Origin: Staphylococcus phage S6 | Strand: one strand, 5' to 3' | Sequence record: LC680885.1 | Length of the DNA stretch: 64,000 bases | In this document: one piece after another, positions 11,438-62,145 of the stretch | Layout: each line of letters begins with the position of its first letter | Numbering within the stretch: the stretch's first letter is position 1 | The notes under the pieces: model-generated | What the model was told of the DNA's origin: nothing | Database searches by the model: none | Seen by the model: only the letters and a program-made list of their open reading frames with translations | Translations under genes and position numbers: made by a program

Positions 11438-12355
11438 TTATCTAAAACGTTTTTTGTATTCTTCTTCATATTTAGCATTGACATCTGAAACTTTAATATC
11501 TTTACCATCATCTGTTTTAAAGTTATCTTTATCAATTTCTTCACCTTTAATTACTTCTTTATCTTCATTTTCTACTTTAGCTACCATAGCAATATGAGGT
11601 GGTACAAATGATGCTTGTTTAACTGTTTCCATTTTAGCATTATGAATACGACCTTTAATTAATTTACGAGAGAAATGTACATTTTTCATAGTTAATGTTT
11701 TACCTTTAACTAATGCATTTTCTCTAAGTGCATCAATTTCATTAATAATATCACTTAATTCTTTTTTAGAATATCTATTATCTTCTAGATTTGTTACTAA
11801 GTCATTAATAAGTTCTTCTTTAGTATAAGATTTCTCACTGAATTTTTTAACATTTTTCTTTCTACTAGTCATTTTCTTTTTACCAACCTTCTGATTTGAT
11901 TTAGTTTTTGTACTTTGTTTCTTTTCTTTTAATACTGGATTCTTAACTTCTTCTTTAGTCTCTTCTTGCTTAGTTTCTACTTTATCCTCTTCTTGTTTAG
12001 TTTCTTTTTGCTTAATTTCTTTTGCTTTCTCTGGATTTAAACCTGAAGCTGTTACAGTTACTTTATCATAAGAACTTTCTGTTGGAATATCCTTAAGATT
12101 AATTTCAACATCTTTAAGTTCATCTGAATTGATGAAAATTTCTTTTTTATCATAATTAATCTTAATAACATCATCATCTTCAGGAATTAAAACTAAATTC
12201 TTTCTGTCATATTTCTCTGGAATAGTTTCGATATCAAATGTAATTGTATCTCCTTCATATCCTTGTTCTTCTGATAATTTAATCTTAGCTGACTCTAATA
12301 CAGTTAAATCCTCTTTTTCTTTTGTAACTTTCTTTCTTGTAATTGCCATATCCAA
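11438..12355 (-). CDS. hypothetical Lys/Glu-rich protein (possible virion/assembly protein)
   Basis: 305-aa ORF. Highly charged 'KQKETKQEEDKVETKQEETKEEVK' region. First gene after the divergent promoter region. Confidence 0.5.
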   Translation of the reverse strand: MDMAITRKKVTKEKEDLTVLESAKIKLSEEQGYEGDTITFDIETIPEKYDRKNLVLIPEDDDVIKINYDKKEIFINSDELKDVEINLKDIPTESSYDKVTVTASGLNPEKAKEIKQKETKQEEDKVETKQEETKEEVKNPVLKEKKQSTKTKSNQKVGKKKMTSRKKNVKKFSEKSYTKEELINDLVTNLEDNRYSKKELSDIINEIDALRENALVKGKTLTMKNVHFSRKLIKGRIHNAKMETVKQASFVPPHIAMVAKVENEDKEVIKGEEIDKDNFKTDDGKDIKVSDVNAKYEEEYKKRFR

Positions 12356-12395: not shown

Positions 12396-12441
12396 CTAAC
12401 TTCATTAAAATAATATATATTTATATTATTAATTGAAGTTT
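12396..12441. promoter_or_regulatory. Palindromic divergent promoter element carrying the conserved AT-rich motif on both strands
   Basis: 'aacttcattaaaataatatatatttatattattaattgaagtt' is an imperfect 43-bp palindrome. The + strand copy 12413-12441 ('atatatttatattattaattgaag') and the rc of 12396-12421 ('aaatatatattattttaatgaagtt') both match the motif found upstream of 8 other operons. Sits in the 330-bp AT-rich gap between the minus- and plus-strand blocks. Confidence 0.45.
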
Positions 12442-18534: not shown

Positions 18535-18560
18535 TTAAATATATATTATTTTAATGAGAT
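18535..18560 (+). promoter_or_regulatory. Conserved promoter-like motif copy 1 ('ttaaatatatattattttaatgagat')
   Basis: Matches the recurring TTAAATATATATTATAAAAATGAG consensus. Lies 58 nt upstream of the 18618 start. Confidence 0.45.
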
Positions 18561-18617: not shown

Positions 18618-20168
18618 TTGGATATGGCAAAAGTAAAATACTCACAAACAAAATTATTGGTAAGAGGAGCATTTAGATCAGATGAAATTATCAACGTAGT
18701 TGGTGATGGCGGAATTGGTAAAACACAAATGATGAGAGATATTGCAGAAGAAGATAATATGAACTTCATTACTATCGCTGCAAATAACCTTAAAGAAGGG
18801 GAATTATCTTTACCAATGTTATCACAAAAAGATAATGAAGTTATCTATGCTCCAATGGATAAAATTAAGTTAGCTAATAGTCTTTTTGAGAGATATAAAG
18901 AGTATCAAAGAGAAGGTGGAAAACAATATTCACGTAAAGACCTTTCTTTAAAATCTGTTGATGAATTAAAAGAAATTTATGTGAAATTGACTGGTAAAGA
19001 TGTTGTTGATTATTATGAGGATACTCATGAAAACTATGTTAATAAAGTATTTAACAAAGCTAGAGTTAAAAATGTTAAATATAGTAAAAATGATTTAATG
19101 AAAAAATCATTTAATGAATTAAATGAAATCTTTGTAGAATTAACTGGTAAAGAATTAAGAGATAAAATTGGTAAAGGTTTCTATATCAAAGAAATTTTAG
19201 AAGCAGTTCCAAGACCTTATACTCTATTATTTATTGACGAAATTGGACGTACAGACCAACAAGTACAATCAGAGTTAATGAACTTCTTATTAGAACGTCA
19301 AGTAAATGGTTATCATTTACCACCTAACGTTAAGATTGCATTAGCACAAAACCCATCTTCAGACATGCCAGGATTTGAAGACTCAGAATACGCAGCAACT
19401 TCTATGGATAACGCAGTAAGTTCTCGTATTACATTTGTACACATGGTTCCTGATATTGAAAGTTGGGTAGACTTTGCTACTAAATATAAAGATGGTTCAG
19501 AAAAGCAAAATATTCATCCATCTATTGTTGAGTTCGTAACTGAAAAAGAAAGTACTGAATATTTATTCAGACCTCATAAAGAAGCTGGTAAAGACTTCAA
19601 TGATACTAACCCACGTTCTTGGGAAATGATTTCTAATATGTTATATGTATTAGAAGAAGATGATTTATTTAAATTCTCTAATAGTGAAGAAGAGAAACGT
19701 AAGAAGAAAGATACTTTACAATTCTTCACTGAAGGTAAAATTAATAGTGATTTAGCAAACTTATTTGTTAAATTCTATATTGAAAAACAAGCTAAATTAC
19801 CTCGTCCAAGTGATATTTTATTTGAATATGATAAAGGTAAAATGGTTCCTCGTAAAGAATTAGCTAAACAACACATTGAAGCTATTGAAAGTCAATCAAC
19901 TATTAGACAATTAACATTGAAAACTTCAATGATTAACTATCTTAAAAATAATCCTGATTTAGCTGAAGAACAAGTTATTCAAATTGCTGTAGAAGCTTTA
20001 TTATTAGGTAAAGTTGAAACTAATGCTACACCAATTAGATTAATTTCTAGACTTTCAGAATCTACTGAAGAGTCAGACCAAGAATTATATGAGAAATTCA
20101 CTGATAATGAATTATACAGTGATAAAGCATTTGCATTATACGAACAAATGGTAGGAAGCTTAGGATAA
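18618..20168 (+). CDS. AAA+ ATPase, MoxR-like (AAA_5-type)
   Basis: Walker A 'GDGGIGKTQ', Walker B 'LLFIDEIGRT', sensor 'IALAQNPSS'. An insertion of about 110 aa lies between Walker A and B. AGGAGAG RBS. Confidence 0.65.
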   Translation: MDMAKVKYSQTKLLVRGAFRSDEIINVVGDGGIGKTQMMRDIAEEDNMNFITIAANNLKEGELSLPMLSQKDNEVIYAPMDKIKLANSLFERYKEYQREGGKQYSRKDLSLKSVDELKEIYVKLTGKDVVDYYEDTHENYVNKVFNKARVKNVKYSKNDLMKKSFNELNEIFVELTGKELRDKIGKGFYIKEILEAVPRPYTLLFIDEIGRTDQQVQSELMNFLLERQVNGYHLPPNVKIALAQNPSSDMPGFEDSEYAATSMDNAVSSRITFVHMVPDIESWVDFATKYKDGSEKQNIHPSIVEFVTEKESTEYLFRPHKEAGKDFNDTNPRSWEMISNMLYVLEEDDLFKFSNSEEEKRKKKDTLQFFTEGKINSDLANLFVKFYIEKQAKLPRPSDILFEYDKGKMVPRKELAKQHIEAIESQSTIRQLTLKTSMINYLKNNPDLAEEQVIQIAVEALLLGKVETNATPIRLISRLSESTEESDQELYEKFTDNELYSDKAFALYEQMVGSLG

Positions 20169-22247: not shown

Positions 22248-24311
22248 ATGTTAAAAAAGACTACAGAAAATGAATTAGAAAAGTTATTCAATGTCACTAT
22301 TTATAATGAAGAATTTTCTAATTTAAAACCTATGTATAATAGAAAAGATACTGAAACTAGAACTAAATTAAATGACAATCAAAATTCTAGAGTGTATGAG
22401 AATTTAATAAATTTCATTAATTATTCTAAAGCAGGAATGACACACATGTTTTTAACTCGTTCTAATAAATATAGAGATAAATATATTGATTTTCTAAGAA
22501 ATAGACTTGGTAAGGAAGATTTATTAGATGAGGTTGAATTTGAATATACAGATAGATATTTCAGATCTTTCATATATAATATAGATATAATTAGAAGAAG
22601 TGAATATCAAACACATCAATCTATAGAAAATGACTCTAAATTAGAAGATTCATTCTTATTAAGAAATGGAAATACAAATATAGATAGCTTTAAAACGGAT
22701 AATGGTTTATCTATAGAATTTTTAGATAAAGATGTAAAGAAAGATTTTTTAGATAAGAACAAACAAATTAGTTTAGAATCTTTGCTAGCTATCGATACGA
22801 TGGTGTCTAATTCATTAAGAAAGAAATGGTTAAAATCAATTGAAAAAGAAGAATTACCTGATATGAATATTATATTTAAAGAAGTTCCAGAAGTAGTAAT
22901 TATACTAGCAAACAGTATATATGAAAGATCAAATTTCAAATTATCATATGTAGATAGAAGTGTTATTAATATACACGCAGACGTTTCAGATGTTTTTGAA
23001 TCAATACTAACTTTAACTTCTAATTTTAATTATAAATTAATATTAGATTTAATAGATGAAGATTACTTAAGTAAAAATTTAAATCATTTCAAAGCTTCTG
23101 AATTTTCTTTATCTGACAATAATGACATTGATAATATATTTAGTATAATCGGAATTATTAAAAAACAAACGGACGTTATTAATAAATTTATAGAAAAAAG
23201 CAAATCAGATAATCTAGAAGACAATATTAATTTAATAATTAAAGAAAATGAAATAGATGATGACTTTGGAGAAATATTAAAAGTTTATATTGATAGTGTA
23301 TTATCTAAATTTAGAGAATATATTGAAGATGATACCAATATATTAAAAGATTCATCTAAGGTTTTAATAGGTGAAAATCTATTTGATTTCTTTATGAAAT
23401 TAGATGATCTCGAAATTTTAATGATTAGAAATATATACAGAGTTTTAGATAGTAATGTATATAATCCTGTAATCAGAGATGTTAAAGAATCACAAGAAAA
23501 AGTTATGAATGGAATAGTAGATTATTTTAAAAATAATACTAAAAAATTATCTTTAGATTTATCTAATATCGATATAAGTAGATTGAAAGATAGTTCTTTC
23601 ACATTATTAAACGATTTCATAACAAATGGAGAAGTAAGTAATCTTCGTATGAAACCTAATGAAGCTAATATAGAGTATTTCTATAAATTAAGTGTGGATA
23701 AAGAATTAAACCGTGACATATTAAATAGTAATATACAATATATGAAACAGGAATTATTAAAAGGTTTTAATGATGATTCTAAAATGACTTCGAATGCTAT
23801 TATTGAATTTGATAATTTTAATATTAATTTTGCTGTAATAGAAAATAATTCATATAATAATGAAATAGAAATAATGATGCAAGGAGTTACTTTTAAGAAA
23901 AAATTAACTGATGAGGATATTGCTACTATCTTTTTATATTCACATAAAGAAGTTAGTATATATCAAGACAAAAAATTAGTTATCATGGATAGAAATTATT
24001 TCTCTAGAAGAGGTATAAATAAATTTATAAATAATATGAATAATGTCTTCACTGATTTAGATGGAGAAAGTTTATCTAAATATATGTCTTTAATTTATAA
24101 TTTATTATCTTTATCAGATAATTCTTTTGAGGAAGATAAAGCAATTTATAATACTCTATATTACAATAAATTTGAATATATTAATAAAGAAAATGAGTTA
24201 AAAGTTGATAGTTATATTAATATGATTAATAATAAAGATGTAACAGATGATTTTAAAAAGAAATTTAAAAAGGTAAGATCTAAGTATTTAGTTTCTAGAA
24301 TATTTATTTAA
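22248..24311 (+). CDS. hypothetical protein
   Basis: 687 aa. AAAGGAG RBS. No motif recognised. Confidence 0.55.
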   Translation: MLKKTTENELEKLFNVTIYNEEFSNLKPMYNRKDTETRTKLNDNQNSRVYENLINFINYSKAGMTHMFLTRSNKYRDKYIDFLRNRLGKEDLLDEVEFEYTDRYFRSFIYNIDIIRRSEYQTHQSIENDSKLEDSFLLRNGNTNIDSFKTDNGLSIEFLDKDVKKDFLDKNKQISLESLLAIDTMVSNSLRKKWLKSIEKEELPDMNIIFKEVPEVVIILANSIYERSNFKLSYVDRSVINIHADVSDVFESILTLTSNFNYKLILDLIDEDYLSKNLNHFKASEFSLSDNNDIDNIFSIIGIIKKQTDVINKFIEKSKSDNLEDNINLIIKENEIDDDFGEILKVYIDSVLSKFREYIEDDTNILKDSSKVLIGENLFDFFMKLDDLEILMIRNIYRVLDSNVYNPVIRDVKESQEKVMNGIVDYFKNNTKKLSLDLSNIDISRLKDSSFTLLNDFITNGEVSNLRMKPNEANIEYFYKLSVDKELNRDILNSNIQYMKQELLKGFNDDSKMTSNAIIEFDNFNINFAVIENNSYNNEIEIMMQGVTFKKKLTDEDIATIFLYSHKEVSIYQDKKLVIMDRNYFSRRGINKFINNMNNVFTDLDGESLSKYMSLIYNLLSLSDNSFEEDKAIYNTLYYNKFEYINKENELKVDSYINMINNKDVTDDFKKKFKKVRSKYLVSRIFI

Positions 24312-24333
24312 ATATATATTATATAATTGAGTT
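24308..24333 (+). promoter_or_regulatory. Conserved promoter-like motif copy 2 ('ttaaatatatattatataattgag')
   Basis: Overlaps the stop codon of the 22248-24311 gene. Followed by a hairpin 'aattgagttgg..caactcaatt'. Confidence 0.4.
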
Positions 24334-24383: not shown

Positions 24384-25571
24384 ATGGATATGAGTAAAGC
24401 AATAAAAGATTTATTTATCAATTACAATATATCTTATATTGAAGTTAATGAAGATCATGAACTTAATGAAATTGATAAAGAAGAATTATTAAAAATATTA
24501 GATTTTGATATTAAATTTGAAAAGGAAGAAATTTTAATAAGTGATAATATTAAAATAAATAATTTTAACGGTAATAAGTTAATAAATTTTGTATTTAATT
24601 ATTACTATACAGATAATGAATCACTAAAAGTATTTTTAAAAGACGTTATCAAAGATATTATTATGTATGGATATAAAGAAGATAGAAAAATAAGTCTAAA
24701 TATAAATCAATTACCTTTAGTATTTTATATAAATAAATTTTGTAAAGATAATGACATTAAAAATATTAAATTCTTTTATACTTTTAAAAATTCTTATGGG
24801 AATTTTTCATTTGGTTTATTAAAAGAAGAACATCTAGATGAATTTATTGATGATATAGAAGAAATAAGCAATAATAAGTTCTTCAATTTAAATAGTGGAT
24901 TATTAGATAATGACTTAATAATTAATGGAAATGAAAAGAAATTTATGAAGCTAATATCAAGTTTAATAGATTTAGATATGTCACATAAGGGTAATATATT
25001 TAAATTAAAAATGATAAATTATTTTTATAAATTATTTAATAGTTATATTAATAGTAAAGAAGATTTAGAATATGCAGATGAATTAATGAAGTTTAAAATA
25101 GATAGTCTTAAATATGGTGAATTTAATAAATATTATCTATATGAAAGATTTATAATCGGTATAGATAATTTATATGAACAAGAATTCTTAGGATATAATA
25201 CAAGAATGAATTATAATTATTTTATTGATAAAATACAAAAAATTGAAGATGAAGATGAAGTTAAATATATTTCAAAAATTGTTTTCTTTACATTAATAGA
25301 TGATATTTATAATGAAGCATCATTCTTTTTATCTTTTAGAACAGTCAATAAATATACTGATATTGCAGTTAAAGAAATATTGAAATTGATTGAAGACAAT
25401 CTTACAGAAAATCAGAAGAAACAATTTGTCAGAGAATATATGAGTATGAAAGATAGTTCATTTTATGCTTCAAATGAAAAATATAATCAAACATCTACAC
25501 TTGTTAAAATGTCTAAAGGGAAATTGAAAAAATTAATTATGAATGAAACAGTTAAAAAGACATTTATTTAA
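24384..25571 (+). CDS. hypothetical protein
   Basis: 395 aa. AGGAG RBS. Confidence 0.5.
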   Translation: MDMSKAIKDLFINYNISYIEVNEDHELNEIDKEELLKILDFDIKFEKEEILISDNIKINNFNGNKLINFVFNYYYTDNESLKVFLKDVIKDIIMYGYKEDRKISLNINQLPLVFYINKFCKDNDIKNIKFFYTFKNSYGNFSFGLLKEEHLDEFIDDIEEISNNKFFNLNSGLLDNDLIINGNEKKFMKLISSLIDLDMSHKGNIFKLKMINYFYKLFNSYINSKEDLEYADELMKFKIDSLKYGEFNKYYLYERFIIGIDNLYEQEFLGYNTRMNYNYFIDKIQKIEDEDEVKYISKIVFFTLIDDIYNEASFFLSFRTVNKYTDIAVKEILKLIEDNLTENQKKQFVREYMSMKDSSFYASNEKYNQTSTLVKMSKGKLKKLIMNETVKKTFI

Positions 25572-30752: not shown

Positions 30753-30774
30753 ATAATTGAATGAGGTATTTATT

Positions 30775-31353
30775 ATGGAAAAATACTATAAATTTAATTT
30801 ATTTGAGTGCATACTAAAAAATATTGGTATGCACTCAGATAAATATGAAAATTTGATAAGTAATATAAATAAAAATTTTACATCTTTATATTTTTATGAC
30901 TATGAGATTAATAATAGTGATATAGATAAATTGATATATGATAACATTCAAAAACAATTAATTGATGATAGTTATTTTTTATTTGAAATCAATAATAAAG
31001 AAGAAAGACTATTAGTTGATTTTGAAAATAACCTTTTATATGATAAATATAATGAGAAAATAGGAATGGTTTCTTTAAATAGGATTACTTCTTCTAGAGT
31101 AAATTTATTTTCAGATTTTGAGAATAAATATAGAGATTTAATATTTATGGAAAAAGAAGATATAAAATATGAAAATTTAATTGATATGGGATTTAATATT
31201 GTTACTACTTTTGAAATTTCTACCGTATGTAAAAATAAAATAAATAATTTTAGTTACTTTGGTTTTGATATTAAAGATAATAAAAATAATCTATTAATTG
31301 AATGTGATGAAAAAGAATTCAAAATTAATAAAGTTAAGAATAATTTTATATAA
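30775..31353 (+). CDS. hypothetical protein (ends ..KVKNNFI, weak family-like tail)
   Basis: ATG at 30775 with TGAGGT 7 nt upstream. The track start 30757 is a TTG. Confidence 0.45.
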   Translation: MEKYYKFNLFECILKNIGMHSDKYENLISNINKNFTSLYFYDYEINNSDIDKLIYDNIQKQLIDDSYFLFEINNKEERLLVDFENNLLYDKYNEKIGMVSLNRITSSRVNLFSDFENKYRDLIFMEKEDIKYENLIDMGFNIVTTFEISTVCKNKINNFSYFGFDIKDNKNNLLIECDEKEFKINKVKNNFI

Positions 31354-31411
31354 TTAGAAAAGTTAAAAGATAAATTTATTAATGATTATGAATAAGGAGA
31401 CTTTGAATTTT

Positions 31412-32131
31412 ATGTATAAAGAAGATGAAATGAATACAGGTCATATAGTTGCTGATTGTGATGAAGTTTTAGTAAATATTTCCCCTAAGATAGTTCAATT
31501 AATGCATGAAGATTTTGATTATTACAGTCAATTCTTTAGACTATCTCCAGAGTATAATTACGGTACTCATTACAATACAGTTCTTAATCGTCCTGAATAT
31601 TATATTGACCAATGGTTAGTAAGAAAAGATGTTTATGAAAGATTTTCTGAAGATGAAGTTAATGAAGCTAGAAATAGGTTACAAAATGAAATTATATTTA
31701 AAAAAGATTTATACGATACATTAGAACCAACAAATTTAGCTAAAAGTTTATCATATACAATCAATACACCTTTAATGAATAGATTATCAATTGTAACTAA
31801 AACTTCTGATAATAACTTAAAATCTAAAGAGAAATTTTTGAAAACTTTATTTAGAGGAAGTATGGAAAAGGTTGATATTTATTATCTTGAATCAGATGAA
31901 AAGAAATCAGATGTAATTAATACATTAGGTTATGTTACTAGAATATATGAGGATGAAGTTAGTAATATTAAAGACATTATTATGAATTGTGATAATGTTA
32001 TGCAAACTGGCATCGATATTCCTTCATTAGGATATAACCAAAAATTAGATGAAGCAACTATTATGAAAGCTAAAGAAAAAGAAATAGACTTAAATTATTT
32101 TAGTTATATGAGTAATAGTTTAGTTAATTAA
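31412..32131 (+). CDS. HAD-superfamily 5'(3')-deoxyribonucleotidase-like protein (possible dNMP phosphohydrolase)
   Basis: N-terminal 'GHIVADCDEVLVNI' matches the DxDx(V/T) phosphatase motif I (compare 'IAVDMDGVLADF' of NT5C-family enzymes). Start is uncertain (ATG 31382/31388/31412; AAGGAG at 31394). Confidence 0.4.
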   Translation: MYKEDEMNTGHIVADCDEVLVNISPKIVQLMHEDFDYYSQFFRLSPEYNYGTHYNTVLNRPEYYIDQWLVRKDVYERFSEDEVNEARNRLQNEIIFKKDLYDTLEPTNLAKSLSYTINTPLMNRLSIVTKTSDNNLKSKEKFLKTLFRGSMEKVDIYYLESDEKKSDVINTLGYVTRIYEDEVSNIKDIIMNCDNVMQTGIDIPSLGYNQKLDEATIMKAKEKEIDLNYFSYMSNSLVN

Positions 32132-32139: not shown

Positions 32140-32192
32140 GCCATGTTAAGTTTATAGCTTAACATGGCTTTTATATATTTATTTTTTTTTTT
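32140..32192 (+). terminator. Rho-independent terminator ('gccatgttaag..cttaacatggc' + long T-run)
   Basis: 11-bp stem, 7-nt loop, followed by 'ttttatatatttattttttttttt'. Confidence 0.7.
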
Positions 32193-32221
32193 ATAAAATA
32201 AGATTGGAAGTGAAATGTTAG

Positions 32222-33733
32222 ATGAAAATAGATATGATCAACGTTGATCAAATTATTACAGCCTATGAAGCTAAAGAAGTTACCAATCCTATTTTCTTTG
32301 ATTCAGGAACTTTACCTAAAGAAGACGGTTTATTCTCATATGAAATATTTGGTTTAATAGGTACTGATGAAAGAAAGAACAATGTGGGGTGGATTAATTT
32401 AGGTGGTAAATACTTAAATCCTGTAGCGTATAAAGCTATGAAAGAATTAGATAAGAATATAGATTTATGTATTCAAGGATCTGATTACTTTAAAATTGAA
32501 AAAGGACAATTAGTTCCAGATGAAAATGGTGAAACTGGATTAAATTTCCTATACGATAATTATGAAAATCTTAAATTTAGAAAAAATGATTCTCGTATCC
32601 GAAATGAAAAAATTGATATGCTTAAAAATACTCCTAAAGATAGAATATTTACAGATAAATGGCTTGTAATACCTGCTTTCTATCGTGACTTTAACCCTAA
32701 TGAAACTTCAGGAGAAATTCAAGATACTGAAGAAATAAATGATATGTATGCGAGTATTTTAAGATCTGTAGATTCAATTAGTTTTAACTCATTTGATTTT
32801 GTAGCTAATACGACTAAATATAATATTCAAAATAAATTATTTGAAATATACGTTAAATTAACTTCAGGTGAACTATCAGGTAAAACTGGTATGATGCAAA
32901 GAAATATTTTAGGTAAGACAGTAGATAATAGTACTCGTTCAGTTATTTCATCACCTAAAATCAATTCAAATAAATGGAATGAAATGCAAATTGAATTCGG
33001 TCAATTAGGTGTTCCATTAACTCAATTAGTAACATTGTTCTTACCTTTCTTTAGTAAATATATTATAGACTTTATTGAAATTCATAAAGATGCTTTCCAA
33101 ACTGCTACTGGAACTGATGAAAAGGAATTAACATTAGAAGAAGTATATGAACAATTTGATGATAAATCTATTAAGAATATGTTAGAATACTTTATTAAAG
33201 ACCCTAATGAAAGATTTAGTCCTATATATGTAAATGATAGACAAGGTAAACGTCATAAAGTTAAATTATTTGAAAATACTTTAGGTAGAACTTTTACTGT
33301 AATTGATTTACTTTATATAGCTGCTACAGAAATATGTGAAGATAAGTATGTGGTTTATTCAAGATATCCGATTGAAAATTTCTTGAATGTGGCTCCTGCT
33401 AAAATTAAAATACTAACTACAGTTGATACAATTCCAGAAATTACTTTAGATGATATTGTACTTAAAGATTATCCTAAAGTTGTTCATGAATATCCTGTTG
33501 ATGAAGATGTATTTATAGATACTGCTATTATACACAACAGTTATGCCGGAGCACTTGGTGCAGATTTTGACGGTGATATGATCTCTATTAGATCTTTATG
33601 GACAGTTGAAGCTAATAAAGAAGCTAATAAACTTCTTAATAAGAAAACTAACTATCTAAACTACACTGGTAATTCAGTACGTAATTTGGGTAACGAATCG
33701 GTACAAGCTTTATATTCATTAACTAAAGAATAA
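32222..33733 (+). CDS. Multisubunit RNA polymerase beta-prime-like subunit, N-terminal fragment (catalytic NADFDGD region)
   Basis: 'KEDGLFSYEIFGL' aligns to the beta-prime N-terminus 'ERDGLFCARIFGP'. 'LVIPAFYRDFNP...EINDMYASILR' aligns to 'LPVLPPDLRPL..DLNDLYRRVI'. 'HNSYAGALGADFDGDMISI' aligns to 'AAYNADFDGDQMAVH', and 'NESVQALYSLT' to 'QDVVLGLYYMT'. No zinc-finger Cys. The ORF ends before the bridge helix. Confidence 0.7.
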   Translation: MKIDMINVDQIITAYEAKEVTNPIFFDSGTLPKEDGLFSYEIFGLIGTDERKNNVGWINLGGKYLNPVAYKAMKELDKNIDLCIQGSDYFKIEKGQLVPDENGETGLNFLYDNYENLKFRKNDSRIRNEKIDMLKNTPKDRIFTDKWLVIPAFYRDFNPNETSGEIQDTEEINDMYASILRSVDSISFNSFDFVANTTKYNIQNKLFEIYVKLTSGELSGKTGMMQRNILGKTVDNSTRSVISSPKINSNKWNEMQIEFGQLGVPLTQLVTLFLPFFSKYIIDFIEIHKDAFQTATGTDEKELTLEEVYEQFDDKSIKNMLEYFIKDPNERFSPIYVNDRQGKRHKVKLFENTLGRTFTVIDLLYIAATEICEDKYVVYSRYPIENFLNVAPAKIKILTTVDTIPEITLDDIVLKDYPKVVHEYPVDEDVFIDTAIIHNSYAGALGADFDGDMISIRSLWTVEANKEANKLLNKKTNYLNYTGNSVRNLGNESVQALYSLTKE

Positions 33734-33745: not shown

Positions 33746-33776
33746 GAGGTAACGGACAATTATAGTTCGTTACCTC
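33746..33776 (+). terminator. Hairpin terminator ('gaggtaacg..cgttacctc') followed by 'tattatactgc'
   Basis: 9-bp stem, 13-nt loop. The stem sequence and 3' tail are related to the hairpin at 16168. Confidence 0.5.
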
Positions 33777-33808: not shown

Positions 33809-33833
33809 TTAAATTTATATTATAATTATGAAG
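33809..33833 (+). promoter_or_regulatory. Conserved promoter-like motif copy 3 ('ttaaatttatattataattatgaag')
   Basis: Matches the consensus. Lies 45 nt upstream of the 33878 start. Confidence 0.4.
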
Positions 33834-33877: not shown

Positions 33878-34177
33878 ATGAATGAAATTAAAATAATGGA
33901 TACTGAACTACTACAGGAAGCTGTAGAAGGAAAAGAGAATAACGGTGGAGGTTACGAACATACTCGTACCGTTTTCGAATTCCAAGGAAAACAAGGAGTT
34001 TTCGAAGACACTTCTTGTGGTGATTTCGGTAGCAGATTCTTCATGGAATGGGATGGAAAAATGGCTATGTGGGGAAGTATGATTGATGAAGAACTCGAAT
34101 ACAGTGAATTCGATGAACAAGAACAATCAGAACTTCTAAAGCATTTTAGAGTTCCTGTTTTTGAAGAAACAATCTAG
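33878..34177 (+). CDS. small acidic protein (locally GC-richer moron-like gene)
   Basis: 99 aa. Codon usage is visibly richer in G/C-ending codons (GAATTC, TTCGAA, GGTGGAGG) than its neighbours. Flanked by terminator hairpins on both sides and its own copy of the promoter motif. Confidence 0.5.
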   Translation: MNEIKIMDTELLQEAVEGKENNGGGYEHTRTVFEFQGKQGVFEDTSCGDFGSRFFMEWDGKMAMWGSMIDEELEYSEFDEQEQSELLKHFRVPVFEETI

Positions 34178-34233: not shown

Positions 34234-34260
34234 TTAAATATATATTATAAAAATAGATGC
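34234..34260 (+). promoter_or_regulatory. Conserved promoter-like motif copy 4 ('ttaaatatatattataaaaatagatgc')
   Basis: Exact core TTAAATATATATTATAAAAAT, located just after the terminator. Confidence 0.45.
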
Positions 34261-34334: not shown

Positions 34335-34817
34335 ATGATATATTACAAAAATAAAGTAAATGGTGAAATATACGAAGTTAATGATATTCATAGAAAAGAT
34401 GATGCATTTTATTATGTGTTTGGTAATGAATTTAAAAAAGAAAGAATAGGATTATATGAATCAGTGGGTAAAAAAATTGATTTATTTGATAAAGATAAAG
34501 GACATAAAGAATTAAACTTCCAATTAAATTATGACTCATCTAGATTATTTTTAGTTACACATATGAAATATGATAATAATAATCCTTTTGCACCTAAAGC
34601 AGTAGATTTAAAGAATCAAAATTTTGTCGCATCCGATTCTTCAGAAGATCTTTACTATATATTATATAAAAGAATGTGTAATGCAATAGATATACCTTTA
34701 TTAGATTATAATGTATTATTAAAAGAATTTAATTTTGATAATGAAGATATATTTAAAATAATATCAGAAGATTGTAAAGAAGTAAAAGATTTTAAAATTA
34801 GAAATCTTTTTAAATAA
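34335..34817 (+). CDS. paralog-family protein, subfamily C (tail ..KEVKDFKIRNLFK); paralog of 35551-36036
   Basis: 160 aa. The first ~35 aa 'MIYYKNKVNGEIYEVNDIHRKDDAFYYVFGNEFKKE' and the last ~22 aa are nearly identical to the 35551 gene at both DNA and protein level, while the middle has diverged. Confidence 0.6.
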   Translation: MIYYKNKVNGEIYEVNDIHRKDDAFYYVFGNEFKKERIGLYESVGKKIDLFDKDKGHKELNFQLNYDSSRLFLVTHMKYDNNNPFAPKAVDLKNQNFVASDSSEDLYYILYKRMCNAIDIPLLDYNVLLKEFNFDNEDIFKIISEDCKEVKDFKIRNLFK

Positions 34818-34832
34818 AAGGAGAAATTTTAA

Positions 34833-35534
34833 ATGGAAAATATTAAATTGTATAAAAATCTAGAAAACGGTGATAAATTTACTTTATCTAAAGATGAAAT
34901 TAATAATGGTAGATTTCTTTATAAAGTCATGAAACAAATAAAAAGTAATTTTTATCCATATTATAATTATGAAGACCAACCCATTACAACCAATGGAAAC
35001 TCTTATTTAATTAATAAACAACTGAATTTTCATTTTTATACACATTCTGATATTATTATAAATTTTAAAAATTTAATTGGAATAGATGAAGATATAATAA
35101 TTAAGAGTAATGAAAATAAAGAAAGAAATATTTCATCTTCAATTGTTTGTTTCTCTGATTCTAATACAAATAATGATAGAATTTATGAAAATATATTTCA
35201 AATTGTTTTGAACACAAAAAAGGCTAAGAAAATAAATCGTATGCTAGATAAATATAAAAGCGATAAATATGAAATATCTTCTTATACAATGGATAAAAAT
35301 GAAGTAATTTTTAAAGTTAGTTTCAAACAAGATTATTTGTCTGATAAGAGTAATGACGCTTATGATTCTCTAGATGAATTGATATATTATATGTTAAAGG
35401 ACCTTAGAATTAAGATCGACAATTCGTATATGTATTTTATGGATTATCTAAGATGGAATTTGGAATTTATTGCTGAAGAAATTACTGATAAGGAAGAAAT
35501 TAAAAAATACTTAATTAAAGAAAAATTTAAATAA
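34833..35534 (+). CDS. paralog-family protein (tail ..EITDKEEIKKYLIKEKFK)
   Basis: 233 aa. Canonical family tail. GGAG RBS. Confidence 0.6.
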   Translation: MENIKLYKNLENGDKFTLSKDEINNGRFLYKVMKQIKSNFYPYYNYEDQPITTNGNSYLINKQLNFHFYTHSDIIINFKNLIGIDEDIIIKSNENKERNISSSIVCFSDSNTNNDRIYENIFQIVLNTKKAKKINRMLDKYKSDKYEISSYTMDKNEVIFKVSFKQDYLSDKSNDAYDSLDELIYYMLKDLRIKIDNSYMYFMDYLRWNLEFIAEEITDKEEIKKYLIKEKFK

Positions 35535-35550
35535 GGAAGTGTAAATGGAT

Positions 35551-36036
35551 ATGATATATTACAAAAATAAAGTAAATGGTGAAATATATGAAGTTAATAA
35601 TATTCATAGAAAAGATGATGCATTTTATTATGTATTCAATAATGAATTTAAAAAAGAGAATTCGTCTTTTTATAAATCTTATGGTAAAAAGATTGATTTA
35701 TATGATGAAGACGTAGGAATTATAAAATTGGAGTTTTTCTTAATTTATGATTTTATTAATCTTCATTTAACTACACACTTTTCTTGGGATTTTAATAATA
35801 TTCCTTTTATACCTAAAAATATAGAATTAACAAATCAAAATTTTGTCATATCAGACTCTTCAATTGATCTTTATTATTTATTCTATAAAAGAATATGTGA
35901 TGTGATAGATATAAATATGGCACATTATAATATTCCATTAGGAAAATTTAATTTTGATAATGGAGATATATTTGAAATAATATCAGAAGATTGCAAAGAA
36001 GTAAAAGATCTTAAAGTTAGAAATCATTTTAGATAA
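35551..36036 (+). CDS. paralog-family protein, subfamily C (tail ..KEVKDLKVRNHFR)
   Basis: ATG at 35551 with AAGGAAG 10 nt upstream (track start 35545 is too close to the RBS). Paralog of 34335-34817. Confidence 0.6.
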   Translation: MIYYKNKVNGEIYEVNNIHRKDDAFYYVFNNEFKKENSSFYKSYGKKIDLYDEDVGIIKLEFFLIYDFINLHLTTHFSWDFNNIPFIPKNIELTNQNFVISDSSIDLYYLFYKRICDVIDINMAHYNIPLGKFNFDNGDIFEIISEDCKEVKDLKVRNHFR

Positions 36037-36891: not shown

Positions 36892-36917
36892 TTAAATATA
36901 TATTATAAAAATGAGAT
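36892..36917 (+). promoter_or_regulatory. Conserved promoter-like motif copy 5 ('ttaaatatatattataaaaatgagat') followed by hairpin 36913-36943
   Basis: Exact consensus. A 13-bp hairpin 'gagataatgaatt..aattcattatctc' overlaps its 3' end. Confidence 0.45.
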
Positions 36918-36975: not shown

Positions 36976-37584
36976 ATGGATTTAAAAGAGAATAAATTTT
37001 ATTATAATAAAGATATTAATGAGCTTTTTATAATTGGTAAGGATGAAAGTGATATTAACGATAAGATAAATAAATTCTATTATAAAAAATTATTAGAAAA
37101 AAATTTAGATTATCATGGTTTAATTAATAATCTTTATTATAATAGAAATATAAATTTTGATTTAATGGATGATGACGATATATATTTTAGTAATATGTAT
37201 AATGGAATTAGAGAATATATTAAGGTGAGTTATGTAGAATTTTCATGTACAAATTTTGAAGATAATGAAGTAATATTACAGTTAGATACTTTTATTGATA
37301 AAAGCAATGATAAAAATCTTTTAGAAGTTCATAAAGATTCGCATGGTGTTACCATAACAATGGTAAAAGGTTTTTATGAAAAAGATCTTATAAATTATAA
37401 TGAATACAAAAATATTTTAGACAAATTATCTGATCTGTTTGACACAATGCTTAAAGAAGAAAATGATGGAAATATTAAAATCTTTATAAATGATATTGAT
37501 ATATTTGAACCTTATGCATATTTTAGAGAGTTAGAAGACGAAAGAGGAATTAAAAATATTTTGGTTAAGAAAAATTTTATATAA
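36976..37584 (+). CDS. paralog-family protein (tail ..ELEDERGIKNILVKKNFI)
   Basis: 202 aa. AGGAGAG RBS. Confidence 0.55.
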   Translation: MDLKENKFYYNKDINELFIIGKDESDINDKINKFYYKKLLEKNLDYHGLINNLYYNRNINFDLMDDDDIYFSNMYNGIREYIKVSYVEFSCTNFEDNEVILQLDTFIDKSNDKNLLEVHKDSHGVTITMVKGFYEKDLINYNEYKNILDKLSDLFDTMLKEENDGNIKIFINDIDIFEPYAYFRELEDERGIKNILVKKNFI

Positions 37585-37598
37585 AGGAGATAGATATA

Positions 37599-38219
37599 AT
37601 GGATGTAAATGAATATATAAATAATCATGATTTTTATAGAGTTGGGAATGACGGTCAAGTATTTGTATTTAATAAAGATATATCAAAAGATGAATTAAAT
37701 TCTAAAATATTTACTAAATTATTTTCATGCGAAAATATAGGAATTATACTGTCTGAATGTGGTCATTATATAATAGATGGAAATAATATATTCTTAAGAA
37801 ATAATGATAAAATATTATTAGTCGAAAATATGACTATTGATATAAGTTTATTTAAAGATGATCTAATTGAATTAAATTTTATATTAAATATTGAATCTGA
37901 TCTTTATTCAAAAATTGGTCCTTTTGAAAAAGATAATCATGATCCTTTTTATTATTATAATACTATTATTCAAATAGAAAATAAAGATAACTTTCAACAT
38001 GAATTAATTTCTCATATAACAAATCATTTTAATAAAATGAGTGATGTTGATTTAATGCTTTTAACTACTAAAAATGAAATTAGATTTAATAAAGATTATA
38101 GTATTAATAAAAAATGTATTGATTTTAAATGTAATTTTAATGAAATTTATAAAATATTTAATAAATTAGAAGATGAAAAAGAAATTAAGAAATATATAGT
38201 AAGAGAAAATTTTAAATAA
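37599..38219 (+). CDS. paralog-family protein (tail ..LEDEKEIKKYIVRENFK)
   Basis: 206 aa. AAGGAG RBS. Confidence 0.55.
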   Translation: MDVNEYINNHDFYRVGNDGQVFVFNKDISKDELNSKIFTKLFSCENIGIILSECGHYIIDGNNIFLRNNDKILLVENMTIDISLFKDDLIELNFILNIESDLYSKIGPFEKDNHDPFYYYNTIIQIENKDNFQHELISHITNHFNKMSDVDLMLLTTKNEIRFNKDYSINKKCIDFKCNFNEIYKIFNKLEDEKEIKKYIVRENFK

Positions 38220-38232
38220 GGATAGAATAAAT

Positions 38233-38796: not shown

Positions 38797-38813
38797 AATA
38801 AGGAGGATTAAAT

Positions 38814-39437: not shown

Positions 39438-39438
39438 A

Positions 39439-41891: not shown

Positions 41892-41917
41892 ATAAATATA
41901 TATTATAAAAATGTTAT
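41892..41917 (+). promoter_or_regulatory. Conserved promoter-like motif copy 6 ('ataaatatatattataaaaatgttat') + hairpin 'tcccaatacta..tagtattggga'
   Basis: Begins 2 nt after the stop of the 41489 gene. Hairpin at about 41917-41945. AAAGGAG RBS of the 41971 gene follows. Confidence 0.45.
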
Positions 41918-41970: not shown

Positions 41971-42747
41971 ATGGAGAAAATTAAAAAATACTACATTAGT
42001 AAATCGAAAGATGAATTTATGGAATTAACTTTCAATGAAAATGAAACACTCTATTTTGACTTTAAGTGGAAAGTTTTAAGTGAGCTATTCACTACAATGC
42101 AAATAAATTATAATAAGAGATTTCTTATATCTCATGAAGAACATGATGACAATGGTTTAGTTGGTCTTAGAATAAATTTCAATGCTTTTCCCACAGTTAA
42201 ATACAAATATAAGGGTAAGAAAAATAAAATGGAACTTCTTATATACGCTATAATACGCTTTAGTCTAAATGAAGAAGACGATAATTATATTAAGTTTAAA
42301 GCTGTTCCTTTATATAATAATAGTGAAATAGGGAAAAGATTATTTAGTAAAAGATCTGGTATATTTGATGATAATGGTGAACTAAATTTACCGCATGACT
42401 TTAATGAAGAAGTTATGATTCGTTTTTTAAAATATTTTAAAAGTCATATACAAAAAGGTAAAAGACCTTTAGAACTCAAGGATGATTTACACAAGATGTT
42501 TACTACTACAAATAAATTAATTTTTGAATTACTAGATCAGATACAAGATCATTCAGATATTGAATTTCTTATTGCACCCGATTGGGATTTTAGTGGTAAA
42601 GAAATGGAAAAAGAAAAAGGTTTTAGTTTTGAAAAAGAATATGATAAGTATATCAGTTTAAATGATTTCGATGTTGATGCATATTTTAGAGAAATAACTG
42701 ATGAGAAAGAGATTAAAAAATTTAAAGTTAAGAAAGGATTTTCCTAA
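41971..42747 (+). CDS. paralog-family protein (tail ..EITDEKEIKKFKVKKGFS)
   Basis: 258 aa. Also has the internal 'QIQDHSDIEFLIAPDW' block shared with the 44346 member ('QIRDHFDIEFFVSDG'). Confidence 0.6.
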   Translation: MEKIKKYYISKSKDEFMELTFNENETLYFDFKWKVLSELFTTMQINYNKRFLISHEEHDDNGLVGLRINFNAFPTVKYKYKGKKNKMELLIYAIIRFSLNEEDDNYIKFKAVPLYNNSEIGKRLFSKRSGIFDDNGELNLPHDFNEEVMIRFLKYFKSHIQKGKRPLELKDDLHKMFTTTNKLIFELLDQIQDHSDIEFLIAPDWDFSGKEMEKEKGFSFEKEYDKYISLNDFDVDAYFREITDEKEIKKFKVKKGFS

Positions 42748-54370: not shown

Positions 54371-54406
54371 TTTGAATAACGGATTAAATACAATTCGTTA
54401 TTCAAA
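54371..54406 (+). terminator. Hairpin terminator ('tttgaataacg..cgttattcaaa')
   Basis: 11-bp stem, 14-nt loop. Its 3' arm overlaps promoter-motif copy 7. Confidence 0.55.
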
Positions 54407-54426
54407 TTTATATTATATAAGTGTAG
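54402..54426 (+). promoter_or_regulatory. Conserved promoter-like motif copy 7 ('tcaaatttatattatataagtgtag')
   Basis: Variant of the consensus. Lies 37 nt upstream of the 54463 start. Confidence 0.4.
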
Positions 54427-54462: not shown

Positions 54463-56376
54463 ATGACAAATGAAGAAATTGTTTTAGATTTAAAATTAGG
54501 TAAGTATAATGATTATTTACACTCAGATAATTATTTTGAAATTTTAGAAGATTTAAAGAAAGATATTATTAGTAATCCTCAAAAAAGAATGGAAGACTAT
54601 TTTGAAGACAATATATCTAAAAGTAATTATTTCACTTTATTAGTATTAGGTAAACCTTTTAGAGATATGAATAAAGAGTTTACGGAAGAATACTTAGTTA
54701 ATCCAACTGATATTGAAGATTATTATGATTATTTTGACAAAGTTGTTGTTAATTTTATTCATGAAGGACATGATCCAATAAAAGTTAGTCAATCTATTGC
54801 ATTTATTATTGATGAATTAACTATATTTTCAAATGAATATATTTTACCTTTAGATGGACCATCTATTTCATTATACGATATTATGAGATTGGCTAATGAA
54901 GATAAAGAAGTAGAAAAATTAATTAACTTTGATAAAGAAGATATTGACCCTAGCTTAAACTATCAGCAAATTATCAATGAAGTTCAAAAACCTAATATGC
55001 ATAAATTAATTGATCGTATTAAATCTGATAAAGAAAATGATTATAAAACTTTCTTACATTCAGGAACAGGTATTAATAAGATACAATTGAATGAGGTTTT
55101 AAGTTTCGTAGGATACAAACCAGATATTCGTGGCGATGTTGTAACTGATATTATTGATACCTCATTCATGCGTGGTTTAAAAGATACAACACAATTTGCT
55201 ATTGATGCAGAATCTTCATTAAACGCATTAATGAACTCTAAGAATAAAGTACGTGAATCAGGATACTTAAACCGTAAAATTACTTTATTAACTTCAGATT
55301 TAAAATTATCAGAAAATGAAGATTGTGAAAGTAAACATTTTGTTTACGTTAATATGAATAGTCAAGATAAATTAGATAGATTTAATGATAGATTCTATTA
55401 TGATGATACAGATCAAGAATTAAAATTAATTAATTCTAAAGAAGATAGTCATTTAATAGGACAGATTGTTCCATTACGTTCTCCTATTACATGTGCTGAA
55501 TCTAAAGGAAAAATATGTCAAACTTGTTATGGTAAACGTTTATATAACATTAATAGAAACTTATCTGTAGGTATATTAGCTACTTTAAGATTAACAGAAC
55601 CTATGACTCAAAAATTACTATCAACAAAACACTTACAAGCTGTACAGTTATCTGAATTCTCTTGGCCAGATATCTTTAAAGAACACTTTGAATTCTCTGG
55701 AGACAATATTGTTCCACGTAATGAAAAGACTAAGGTTATTATTGATGAAATGGTTATTAATGAAGATTATGAATATGGAAGATATAAAGCTAACAGTTTT
55801 AAATTTAAAGTAGGTACTAAAACTCATACTGTTAAATCACCTGTAACTCTTAAAATACCAGATCAAAATATTGAAACTATGGATAAGTTTTACGATGAAG
55901 ATGAAAATGCATTTATATTCAGTATGAAAGACTTAAAAGAGAATTTCTTATTCAATATTAAAATTAAAAATGAAGGTGTTGCTGACCCACTTCTTAAAAT
56001 ACGTTCTATATTAGAAAGTACTAAATACATTAGAAATGATTATGAAGAAAATAACTATCAAGCAATGTTCAATGATGTAACAGATTTATTACTTAAATCA
56101 GGTACAGACGTTATGAGTGTTCATTTAGAGACTATTATTAGAAACATGGTATTCTTAAATGAAGATTATAAAGAAAGAACTAAATATAGAGATCCTGAAT
56201 TTGAACCTGATATTGAATTGAAAAATGTAGGTAGTGCTATTTTAAGTTCACCTTCACCAGTTCAATCATTAATCTTTGAAAAGATTAAAGCTCAGTTAAG
56301 CACTGATGAAACTAATAACTTCTTCAGTAAAGATGGGGATTCAATGTTCGATCCGTTATTTGATTTTGATATTTAA
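54463..56376 (+). CDS. Multisubunit RNA polymerase beta-prime-like subunit, C-terminal fragment (bridge helix + trigger-loop region)
   Basis: 'NKVRESGYLNRKITLLTSDL' aligns to the bridge helix 'TANSGYLTRRLVDVAQD'. 'RSPITCAESKGKICQTCYGKRL...VGILATLRLTEPMTQKLLSTKH' aligns to region G '[21 protein letters not shown]...[22 protein letters not shown]'. AAGGAGAATG RBS. Confidence 0.7.
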   Translation: MTNEEIVLDLKLGKYNDYLHSDNYFEILEDLKKDIISNPQKRMEDYFEDNISKSNYFTLLVLGKPFRDMNKEFTEEYLVNPTDIEDYYDYFDKVVVNFIHEGHDPIKVSQSIAFIIDELTIFSNEYILPLDGPSISLYDIMRLANEDKEVEKLINFDKEDIDPSLNYQQIINEVQKPNMHKLIDRIKSDKENDYKTFLHSGTGINKIQLNEVLSFVGYKPDIRGDVVTDIIDTSFMRGLKDTTQFAIDAESSLNALMNSKNKVRESGYLNRKITLLTSDLKLSENEDCESKHFVYVNMNSQDKLDRFNDRFYYDDTDQELKLINSKEDSHLIGQIVPLRSPITCAESKGKICQTCYGKRLYNINRNLSVGILATLRLTEPMTQKLLSTKHLQAVQLSEFSWPDIFKEHFEFSGDNIVPRNEKTKVIIDEMVINEDYEYGRYKANSFKFKVGTKTHTVKSPVTLKIPDQNIETMDKFYDEDENAFIFSMKDLKENFLFNIKIKNEGVADPLLKIRSILESTKYIRNDYEENNYQAMFNDVTDLLLKSGTDVMSVHLETIIRNMVFLNEDYKERTKYRDPEFEPDIELKNVGSAILSSPSPVQSLIFEKIKAQLSTDETNNFFSKDGDSMFDPLFDFDI

Positions 56377-60822: not shown

Positions 60823-60847
60823 TTAAATATATATTATAAAGATGTAT
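60823..60847 (+). promoter_or_regulatory. Conserved promoter-like motif copy 8 ('ttaaatatatattataaagatgtat') + palindrome 'tattaataatagaatattattaata'
   Basis: Begins 5 nt after the stop of the 60219 gene. GGAGAG RBS of the 60889 gene lies downstream. Confidence 0.45.
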
Positions 60848-60888: not shown

Positions 60889-62145
60889 GTGTCAGATATT
60901 ATGTTAACAAATTTTAAAGATCATTTACACAGAGGCGGAAACCTTTCAGTTTCAATTTATACTTTATTTACTAGAAAGAATAAAAATACTGGTAATGCTA
61001 TTCATGGTGAATATATTAATACGTATCAATCAAGTCAATATAACAATGTACCTTTCTTAAGTGAAATTGAAAATAATGGTAATCATTATATTTCTTTCTC
61101 TTATAACAAATTTCAACAAGGTCAAGCACCTATTCGTGAAGATGTATTAATTAGTTATCCACATTTACAAGAATTTAATAATTTCTTAAAAGCAACTTAT
61201 ACAAGTATTAGTGAGAATTTTAATAATATTTTCTCTAATAATCAAGTTAATCCAGATTACCAACAACATATTTGGCAATCACCAAAATTAGTGTCTGGTA
61301 AAGAAATTGCTATTGCTCCTGCAGTAATTCAAAATAATAGAACTAATAATTTTGAAATTGGTTTTAATATTATGGTAAATGATACTAATAAATATGATTT
61401 TGTATCAGCTAATACATTTATCAGTTTAGTTAATTTATTAGTTAGAATTACTAATGATCCATTAACATTCAGAAATCAATGTGTACAAGCTGAAATGCAA
61501 GCTAAAGAAATTGAAAATAATCAGTTATTAAAAGGGTTATTAAGAGCTCAAGGTTTACCTACAGACATGAGTAATCATCATATGGATGAAAAATCAGCTC
61601 AAGGTAATGCTCCACGTAATAATAACTTTAATAATAACAATGGTGGAGGTTTCAATAACAATAATCAATTCGGTAATTTTGGTGGTAATAACGGAAATTT
61701 TAACCAAGCTCCACAACAAAATAAATTTAATCAACAACAATCTAATAACCAATCTCAAGGAAATTCTTTTGGAAATTTTAATCAACCTCAACAACAACAG
61801 AATCAACAATCGGTACAACAGAATGACAATCCTTTCAATGTGAGTCCGCAACAATCAGCACCACAACAAAGTAATAGTAGTAATCCATTTGATGTTGGTC
61901 AAACGGATCAAATTAGTGATGATGATTTACCATTTGAAACTAAAGGAACTCCACAACAAGATGATAGACAAATTGATAAATCTAACATGTTTAAAGATGC
62001 TGAAGTTAACAAAGAATCAGGTTCTTTAGAAGACTTATCAAATACCGTAAATAATGAAAGTGAAGGTAAAGCTAGTTCTTTACTAGACGATTTCATTAAA
62101 AAAGGTAAAGAATCAGAACAAGAAGATGACGATTTAGGAATTTAA
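60889..62145 (+). CDS. SSB-like protein candidate: globular N-domain, Q/N/G-rich disordered linker, 'DDDLPF' acidic-tip-like motif and acidic C-terminus
   Basis: 418 aa. Low-complexity 'NNNFNNNNGGGFNNNNQFGNFGGNNGNFNQAPQQNKFNQQQSNNQSQGN..'. Then 'ISDDDLPFETKG' (compare the bacterial SSB tip DDDIPF). The sequence ends '..EQEDDDLGI'. Confidence 0.35.
   Translation: MSDIMLTNFKDHLHRGGNLSVSIYTLFTRKNKNTGNAIHGEYINTYQSSQYNNVPFLSEIENNGNHYISFSYNKFQQGQAPIREDVLISYPHLQEFNNFLKATYTSISENFNNIFSNNQVNPDYQQHIWQSPKLVSGKEIAIAPAVIQNNRTNNFEIGFNIMVNDTNKYDFVSANTFISLVNLLVRITNDPLTFRNQCVQAEMQAKEIENNQLLKGLLRAQGLPTDMSNHHMDEKSAQGNAPRNNNFNNNNGGGFNNNNQFGNFGGNNGNFNQAPQQNKFNQQQSNNQSQGNSFGNFNQPQQQQNQQSVQQNDNPFNVSPQQSAPQQSNSSNPFDVGQTDQISDDDLPFETKGTPQQDDRQIDKSNMFKDAEVNKESGSLEDLSNTVNNESEGKASSLLDDFIKKGKESEQEDDDLGI

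Follow-up and report, generated by a model that had tools for sequence, protein, structure and literature searches.

A stand-alone N-terminal β' fragment, probably of the virion RNA polymerase, in Staphylococcus phage S6

The β'-N gene and its homology

We analyzed 64,000 nucleotides of DNA from Staphylococcus phage S6 (LC680885.1), hereafter the window, and within it an open reading frame (ORF) at 32222..33733 on the plus strand, which starts with ATG and encodes 503 residues. The product is a diverged, stand-alone N-terminal fragment of β', a subunit of RNA polymerase (RNAP), that extends from the start of β' up to and including the double-psi β-barrel (DPBB) with its DxDGD loop. Very probably, it is the N-terminal third of β' (β'-N) in the virion-packaged RNAP (vRNAP) of a Staphylococcus jumbo phage akin to AR9 and PBS1. 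Its orthologs are g145 of phage AR9, gp113 of MarsHill, and gp23 of vB_SauM-UFV_DC4 (DC4).

Sequence blocks that align with bacterial β' could be located individually, all on the plus strand. The N-terminal block, DGLFSYEIFG (residues 35–44; 32324..32353), aligns with bacterial DGLFcekIFG; DGLF occupies residues 35–38 and IFG residues 42–44, and Gly36, Phe43 and Gly44 are invariant in the family alignment, which comprises 44 diverse homologs. The lid-region block LVIPAFYRDFNP (residues 148–159; 32663..32698) aligns viPafyRD with viPPdLRP of the bacterial subunit, and its Pro151, Arg155 and Asp156 are invariant in all 44 homologs. The block GKTVDNSTRSVIS (residues 231–243; 32912..32950) corresponds to bacterial LLGKRVDYSARSVI, with Gly231, Lys232, Asp235, Val241 and Ile242 conserved in at least 90% of the sequences. 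The catalytic loop, GADFDGD (residues 446–452; 33557..33577), carries the three Mg-binding aspartates and continues into Met453; Asp448, Asp450, Gly451 and Asp452 are again invariant (44/44). The position of the bacterial asparagine, residue 446, is a glycine in 38 of the 44 homologs, an asparagine in four and an aspartate in two, so that the motif, titled NADFDGD in an initial annotation of this DNA, in fact reads GADFDGD. The C-terminal block ALYSLT (residues 496–501; 33707..33724), the counterpart of bacterial LGL(Y/F)(Y/F)(M/L)T, stands two residues ahead of the stop and aligns with LGLFFLT of bacterial β'.

Bacterial β' binds zinc through N-terminal cysteines (Cys70, Cys72, Cys85 and Cys88 in E. 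coli). The S6 protein has only two, scattered cysteines (Cys83 and Cys372), and the N-terminal region of the 44-sequence alignment contains no cysteine-rich column; the bacterial zinc-finger cysteines are therefore absent. The protein ends at approximately E. coli β' residue 515, about 50 residues past DFDGD and well short of the bridge helix. The four blocks listed in the initial annotation, as well as its statements that the zinc finger is missing and that the ORF stops before the bridge helix, are thus borne out by the sequence.

The homology is evident at the level of profiles and of the predicted fold. PHROG 2986 ('RNA polymerase beta subunit') matches residues 1–499 (model positions 8–535 of 539) with an E-value of 2.6e-110. 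Pfam yields a marginal-looking match of 37 residues to RNA_pol_Rpb1_2 (PF00623; residues 437–473, E=8.7e-6, 26.5 bits versus a cut-off of 25.3); the homology became clear with the PHROGs and a family profile. A large protein database contains 215 homologs, nearly all of 500–550 residues. A family profile built from the 44 diverse homologs matched bacterial β' chains of the PDB with E~1e-22 in three collinear stretches: profile positions 12–45, 144–308 and 436–503 correspond to Streptomyces β' residues 20–54, 312–485 and 522–590, respectively. These stretches hold every block named in the initial annotation; the outcome designated there as refuting, a lack of any significant profile match to RpoC, did not occur. 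An AlphaFold2 model (mean predicted local distance difference test score, pLDDT, 82.7; predicted template modeling score, pTM, 0.52) retrieved β'/γ chains in Foldseek with probability 1.00 and E-values of 1e-20 to 1e-17. The best fold matches were β'-N of the AR9 non-virion RNAP (nvRNAP; PDB 7S00 chain d, at the top), E. coli β' and cyanobacterial γ. The template modeling (TM) scores of these superpositions are low (0.31–0.37), because the model of an isolated subunit does not reproduce the inter-domain arrangement of the complex; E-values and probabilities were used in their place. Sequence, profile and fold thus agree on an N-terminal β' fragment with the catalytic aspartate triad, as originally annotated.

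Bacterial RpoC and the γ subunit (RpoC1) of cyanobacteria and plastids share with the S6 protein the homologous N-terminal half, the lid, the rudder, the DPBB and the DxDGD Mg site, and γ is likewise a naturally separate N-terminal β' fragment. Compared to bacterial β', the S6 protein lacks the zinc-finger cysteines, and has glycine in place of asparagine; its identity to the bacterial β' and γ chains is only ∼16–18%. The vRNAP β'-N proteins of phiKZ-like phages (Chimalliviridae and relatives) belong to the same PHROG and have the same architecture; about 300 phage records match with 26–32% identity over ∼85–90% of the length. Both groups share the two-RNAP strategy, but the phiKZ-like phages are much more distant, with thymine DNA, a phage nucleus and different early-promoter sequences (PMC7598289).

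The closest relatives are themselves Staphylococcus jumbo phages. The ORF is 99.2% identical in DNA to that of DC4 and 99.1% to that of PALS_2; the protein is 100% identical to its counterparts in these two phages and 96–98% identical to those of SA1, MarsHill and Madawaska, which are followed among the Staphylococcus phages by LY01, Machias, PB50 and AH12. Outside Staphylococcus, the closest sequences are from Bacillus phages Goe21, BpSp, AR9 and PBS1 and from Listeria phage LPJP1 (44–45% identity). The window is AT-rich (GC 0.19–0.36), in agreement with the 25% GC reported for the DC4 genome (DC4 paper). The source is therefore a Staphylococcus jumbo phage of the AR9/PBS1 type with multisubunit RNAPs of its own, the kind of phage that had been proposed for the window.

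The gene has been annotated and described before, and holds nothing new for specialists: published carriers are DC4 (gp23), PALS_2, SA1, MarsHill and Madawaska (gp113 in both) and Machias. It is named 'viral RNA polymerase beta-prime subunit, N-terminal' in MarsHill and Madawaska, RNAP β' in the DC4 paper, and 'hypothetical protein' in the PALS_2 entry. The DC4 GenBank entry reads 'rpoC1 / subunit gamma', an automatic name. We reject this γ label, as the split site differs and the best matches are phage rather than cyanobacterial proteins. The order of the genes for the DNA-polymerase catalytic subunit, a 5'(3')-deoxyribonucleotidase and β'-N is common to S6, AR9 and SA1. In the adjoining interval 30757–32131, S6 resembles DC4 in being without the 1305-nucleotide gp111, which in MarsHill and Madawaska separates the genes of the DNA polymerase and of the nucleotidase-like protein (gp110–gp112).

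Division of β' and identity of the polymerase

The C-terminal end point of the protein is a fixed property of the family and reflects a genuine gene split. Among the 44 homologs, 34 end at the same alignment column as the S6 protein, and the rest are longer by at most 19 residues. The continuation of β' is found in gp68 of DC4 (408 residues, phrog_2962), whose residues 66–308 correspond to Streptomyces β' 659–900 and include the bridge helix. In Streptomyces numbering, gp68 starts at approximately residue 594, and the S6 ORF ends at approximately 590. In DC4, the gene for this middle piece (β'-mid; 5644–6870 of the DC4 locus L006) lies ∼47 kb from the β'-N gene, a distance that places it beyond the window. 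As gp68 covers β' only to residue ∼900–1000 of ∼1300 and leaves the C-terminus uncovered, there must be a third β' piece. The vRNAP core is described as consisting of β'-N, β'-mid, β'-C, β-N and β-C (Korn et al., bioRxiv 10.1101/2020.12.14.422802; Sokolova et al., PMC7598289); the third piece, β'-C, is taken from this literature and the position of β'-mid from DC4. A β' split into two genes, as initially annotated, thus has to be replaced by a split into three for the virion enzyme.

DC4 also has a 1416-residue β-type subunit (gp67; phrog_14872/3148) and a non-virion β'-N (gp179); the window itself contributes the non-virion β'-C described below and, among 20 of the larger ORFs that were scanned, including all of at least 395 residues, no further RNAP pieces. 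The phage split, at about E. coli β' residue 515, precedes the cyanobacterial γ/β' junction by ∼100 residues, as judged approximately from local alignments: the last residues of the S6 protein align with 455–521 of the 624 residues of γ. A 2020 review describes the phage and cyanobacterial split sites as coinciding (PMC7598289).

Two sites within the gene that are occupied by group I introns in relatives are empty here. The first (33380..33385, plus strand), between residue 387 and residue 388/389, adjoins an invariant R-Y-P motif and is interrupted in AR9 g145 and MarsHill gp113; the S6 allele is continuous. The second (33569..33577, plus strand; residues 450–452) falls inside the DFDGD codons and is interrupted in AR9 g145, MarsHill gp113 and Madawaska gp113, by introns with homing endonucleases. 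AR9 and MarsHill thus have introns at both sites, the former with the endonucleases g146 and g147, Madawaska at the second site only, and S6 at neither, so that the same two sites are used in a Bacillus and a Staphylococcus phage. An Rfam scan of the window gave no match, and hence no intron, and a tRNA scan of the window found none.

Jumbo phages of this type encode two multisubunit RNAPs (PMC7598289; bioRxiv 10.1101/2020.12.14.422802). The S6 protein is the ortholog of the virion subunit AR9 g145, and not of the non-virion subunit gp270. AR9 g145 (PBS1 gene 35), annotated 'virion RNAP subunit; β' N-terminus', is 44% identical to the S6 protein, collinear with it across 503 residues and ends in the same ...YSLT(K/R)E; in tblastn, its exon 1 by itself reaches E~1e-105, and exons 2 and 3 align collinearly. 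AR9 gp270, the β'-N of the nvRNAP (PDB 7S00/7S01 chain d), is found with E=1e-11, or 4.5e-28 with the profile, and is ∼19% identical by structural alignment. It has the same fold, comprises the same part of β' as a stand-alone N-terminal fragment, also lacks the zinc finger, and has Gly/Ser ahead of D(F/Y)DGD. However, it is a deep paralog (448 versus 503 residues), and its enzyme reads late promoters with the aid of a specificity subunit, gp226. The gp270 ortholog of DC4 is gp179 (E=3e-69), which is only 25% identical to the S6 protein. No chain closer than gp270 was present among the PDB matches of the sequence, profile and fold searches.

The window also encodes a 637-residue ortholog of AR9 gp154, the β'-C of the nvRNAP (54463..56376, plus strand), which matches PDB 7S00 chain D with E=1.2e-81 over residues 45–632, as well as Pfam RNA_pol_Rpb1_5 (E=1.3e-9) and phrog_3015. 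As it belongs to the non-virion enzyme, we reject it as the partner of the 503-residue protein. The window thus carries β' fragments of two different polymerases.

The β'-N gene is flanked by strong hairpins, which also speak for a genuine split; the signals around it are all on the plus strand. Upstream, a terminator-like hairpin (32140..32168; −18.7 kcal/mol, z=−5.6), with a 13-bp stem and the T-run TTTTATATAT, is annotated as a terminator in Madawaska and would end the upstream transcription unit. A weak candidate for a late (nvRNAP) promoter, AACA-N7-TA (32161..32174), lies within the stem of this terminator. The ribosome-binding site GGAAGTGA (32206..32213), read from the sequence 8 nucleotides ahead of the ATG, is annotated at the matching position in Madawaska. 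A strong hairpin with a 12-bp stem (33746..33776; −18.5 kcal/mol, z=−5.8, reached in none of 200 shuffles) follows 12 nucleotides past the stop codon, and the transcript probably has its 3' end there; as a clean T-run is missing, the terminator scan did not call this hairpin. The early-promoter 13-mer described below does not occur upstream of 32222, and sigma-70-type promoter matches around the gene show no excess (23 versus 24.2 in shuffles). AR9 g145 has the same layout of a terminator followed by AACA, with an exact AACA-N6-TA at −33, and its neighborhood matches that of the S6 gene. Published RNA sequencing of SA1 assigned 'ORF177' to the late class and four further RNAP genes to the middle class; the SA1 ortholog, QPI17095, is 96% identical to the S6 protein. 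By analogy with these phages, the S6 gene would be transcribed late, by the nvRNAP.

The assignment to the vRNAP has to be weighed against other readings. A chance resemblance, in which DFDGD and the other blocks have arisen in an AT-rich, low-complexity protein, could draw on the single short match that Pfam returns for residues 437–473, but is given no credence at all in view of the PHROG match, the collinear blocks of the profile, the fold probability and the conserved length of over 200 homologs. It is scarcely conceivable that an intron or intein splits a longer β' gene of which the ORF would be just exon 1, its early stop being an artefact of a mobile element. The AR9, MarsHill and Madawaska orthologs do carry group I introns with homing endonucleases, and intron-split genes are numerous in these phages. 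However, these introns fall inside the 503-residue frame (after residue 387 and at residues 450–452), and the spliced products share the ending ...SLT(K/R)E with the S6 ORF. The common end column of 34 diverse homologs and the intron-free Rfam scan speak against an exon as well. Furthermore, the gene is followed by the strong hairpin and by the early promoter of an unrelated 99-residue ORF, and the bridge-helix piece of DC4 is a separate gene ∼47 kb away.

A β'-N of the non-virion enzyme, which acts after infection and reads late AACA-type promoters on uracil-containing DNA, is very improbable. The significant similarity to gp270, the position of 7S00 chain d as the best structural match, and the absence of gp23 from the RNAP subunits detected by liquid chromatography–mass spectrometry (LC-MS) of DC4 virions, in which gp67 was the only one (DC4 paper), would fit such an assignment. 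The pattern is nevertheless reciprocal, with AR9 g145 far closer than gp270 and with DC4 gp179 as a separate gp270 ortholog; the SA1 ortholog is late and the nvRNAP-type genes are middle; and the first place of 7S00 chain d in the PDB lists is due only to the lack of any vRNAP structure. Apart from the LC-MS result, several points weigh against the assignment of the S6 protein to the virion enzyme. The nearest PDB chain is the non-virion gp270, and by the time of the 2020 review purification had been achieved for no jumbo-phage vRNAP (PMC7598289). The partner subunits were examined in DC4, which is 99% identical over the ORF, and not in the genome of S6 itself, and QPI17095 was mapped to SA1 'ORF177' through accession order. 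The AACA motif of the window is off-consensus by its 7-nucleotide spacer, compared to the exact AACA-N6-TA of AR9, a phage of a host of a different genus; such motifs occur ∼1.5 times per kb by chance, and the late consensus, AACA-N6-T(A/G) (taken from PMC5312081), is too short to be called in the window. The location of the 503-residue polypeptide in the virion is presumed by analogy. On balance, we consider a vRNAP subunit the very probable identity of the protein.

Early promoters and other genes of the window

The early-promoter consensus of AR9, determined by differential RNA sequencing (dRNA-seq), is AAATATATATTAT-(6N)-G+1 (PMC5312081), and the early element of the window is identical to it. 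The window contains nine exact copies of the 13-mer AAATWTATATTAT, compared to 0.61 expected, and none of 100 shuffles reaches nine. Each copy lies between genes and is directed into the downstream gene (Fisher p=6e-5 for the intergenic placement), and eight have G at +1. The signal is limited to the exact 13-mer and its placement: in the AT-rich window, neither the 8-mer TATATTAT (40 versus 35.4 expected) nor the 13-mer with one mismatch (17 versus 12.8) is enriched.

On the minus strand, a promoter core (12410..12422) lies upstream of the gene 11438..12355; it overlaps back to back with a plus-strand copy at 12417, where the coding strand switches, and the two may form a divergent promoter pair. 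The others are on the plus strand. Exact cores precede an AAA-ATPase gene (18537..18549; gene 18618..20168) and the genes 24384..25571 (24310..24322), 34335..34817 (34236..34248, with A rather than G at +1), 36976..37584 (36894..36906), 41971..42747 (41894..41906) and 60889..62145 (60825..60837). Immediately downstream of the β'-N gene, the early promoter AAATTTATATTAT-N6-G (33811..33830) serves the next gene, 33878..34177, and opens a separate, early unit there. Finally, an early promoter at 54404..54423 stands 40 nucleotides upstream of the non-virion β'-C gene, and is a predicted target of the enzyme that contains the 503-residue subunit.

The 687-residue ORF 22248–24311 (plus strand), given as RNAP 'omega' in the PALS2 and DC4 papers, is without a Pfam, PHROG or PDB match, and we reject this designation. 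The family-B DNA polymerase is split into a catalytic part (28818–30752, plus strand; phrog_2927) and an N-terminal part (49350–51071, plus strand; phrog_3011), ∼18.6 kb apart; AR9 has a separate, syntenic 'DNA-polymerase catalytic subunit', g152. Small groups of tandem or near-tandem paralogs, some of them behind early promoters, occupy 26995–28339, 34335–36036, 36976–40050 and 43589–45941. They comprise the pairs 34335/35545 (67% identity), 36976/39439, 37599/38814 and 26995/27698 and the trio 43589/44346/45144. A 1991-residue tape-measure-like protein (4627–10605, minus strand) contains an internal metallo-endopeptidase-type domain at residues ∼1300–1450, with matches to several peptidase PHROGs (E down to 6e-24). 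The C-terminal half of a 645-residue protein (20233–22170, plus strand) matches an HNH-endonuclease PHROG (E=4e-34); its counterpart is given as a metallopeptidase in the DC4 paper.

Proposed role in phage transcription

Beyond the homology, the steps of late synthesis, assembly, packaging and early initiation are modeled on work with AR9, phiKZ and SA1. β'-N would be made late in infection, by the nvRNAP, and would join β'-mid, β'-C, β-N and β-C in an enzyme in which α, ω and σ are absent; the vRNAP works without homologs of these subunits (PMC7598289). The assembled vRNAP would be packed into the head and injected together with the uracil-containing DNA, where it would initiate at the AAATWTATATTAT-N6-G early promoters, nine of which are in the window. 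The promoter ahead of the non-virion β'-C gene would link the two enzymes in a cascade, from the vRNAP to the nvRNAP genes, for which the host RNAP would be unneeded. In the complex, β'-N would supply the aspartate triad for binding of the catalytic Mg2+, as well as elements of the clamp, lid and rudder.

By analogy with PBS2, AR9 and phiKZ, which give progeny without the host RNAP (PMC7598289, PMC5312081), transcription in S6 would be rifampicin-insensitive and independent of the host RNAP, as initially proposed. Our literature searches found no test of rifampicin on any Staphylococcus jumbo phage. It is conceivable, though unlikely, that the enzyme exists and yet some genes need the host RNAP, so that infection is at least partly sensitive to rifampicin. 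Phages RSL2 and RSF1 carry all RNAP genes and yet fail to multiply in rifampicin, and the yield of AR9 falls ∼10-fold (PMC7598289, PMC5312081); a putative sigma-70-like gene is also reported in the DC4 paper. Against such a dependence stand the progeny of PBS2, AR9 and phiKZ, the presence of the AR9 early 13-mer ahead of replication and nvRNAP genes in the window, and the shuffle-level number of sigma-70-type matches around the gene.

The promoter could in principle be recognized by the split β/β' core itself, with conserved, family-specific surfaces of β'-N, either its N-terminal region devoid of the zinc finger or the clamp/lid, reading the DNA directly. This idea arises because there is no recognizable σ-like subunit and the promoter 13-mer is identical in AR9 and S6, while β'-N is only 44% identical; we regard it as a long shot. 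The AR9 authors referred to promoter recognition by a σ-less core as 'an unprecedented situation'. As a related long shot, the replacement of asparagine by glycine in the catalytic loop might reflect another mode of ribonucleotide selection.

Of the two jumbo-phage polymerases, less is understood about the virion RNAP. The absence of introns from the S6 allele would simplify recombinant expression of a vRNAP from a phage of Gram-positive hosts, a practical value that is modest. How a σ-less vRNAP recognizes a 13-bp promoter that is conserved across Bacillus and Staphylococcus phages is a question for the whole family rather than for this locus. For S6 itself, the gene identifies the window as DNA of an AR9/PBS1-like phage, probably with uracil-containing DNA, that brings its own transcription machinery. 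This bears on phage-therapy candidates such as PALS2, DC4 and SA1 as well as on generalized transduction in S. aureus.

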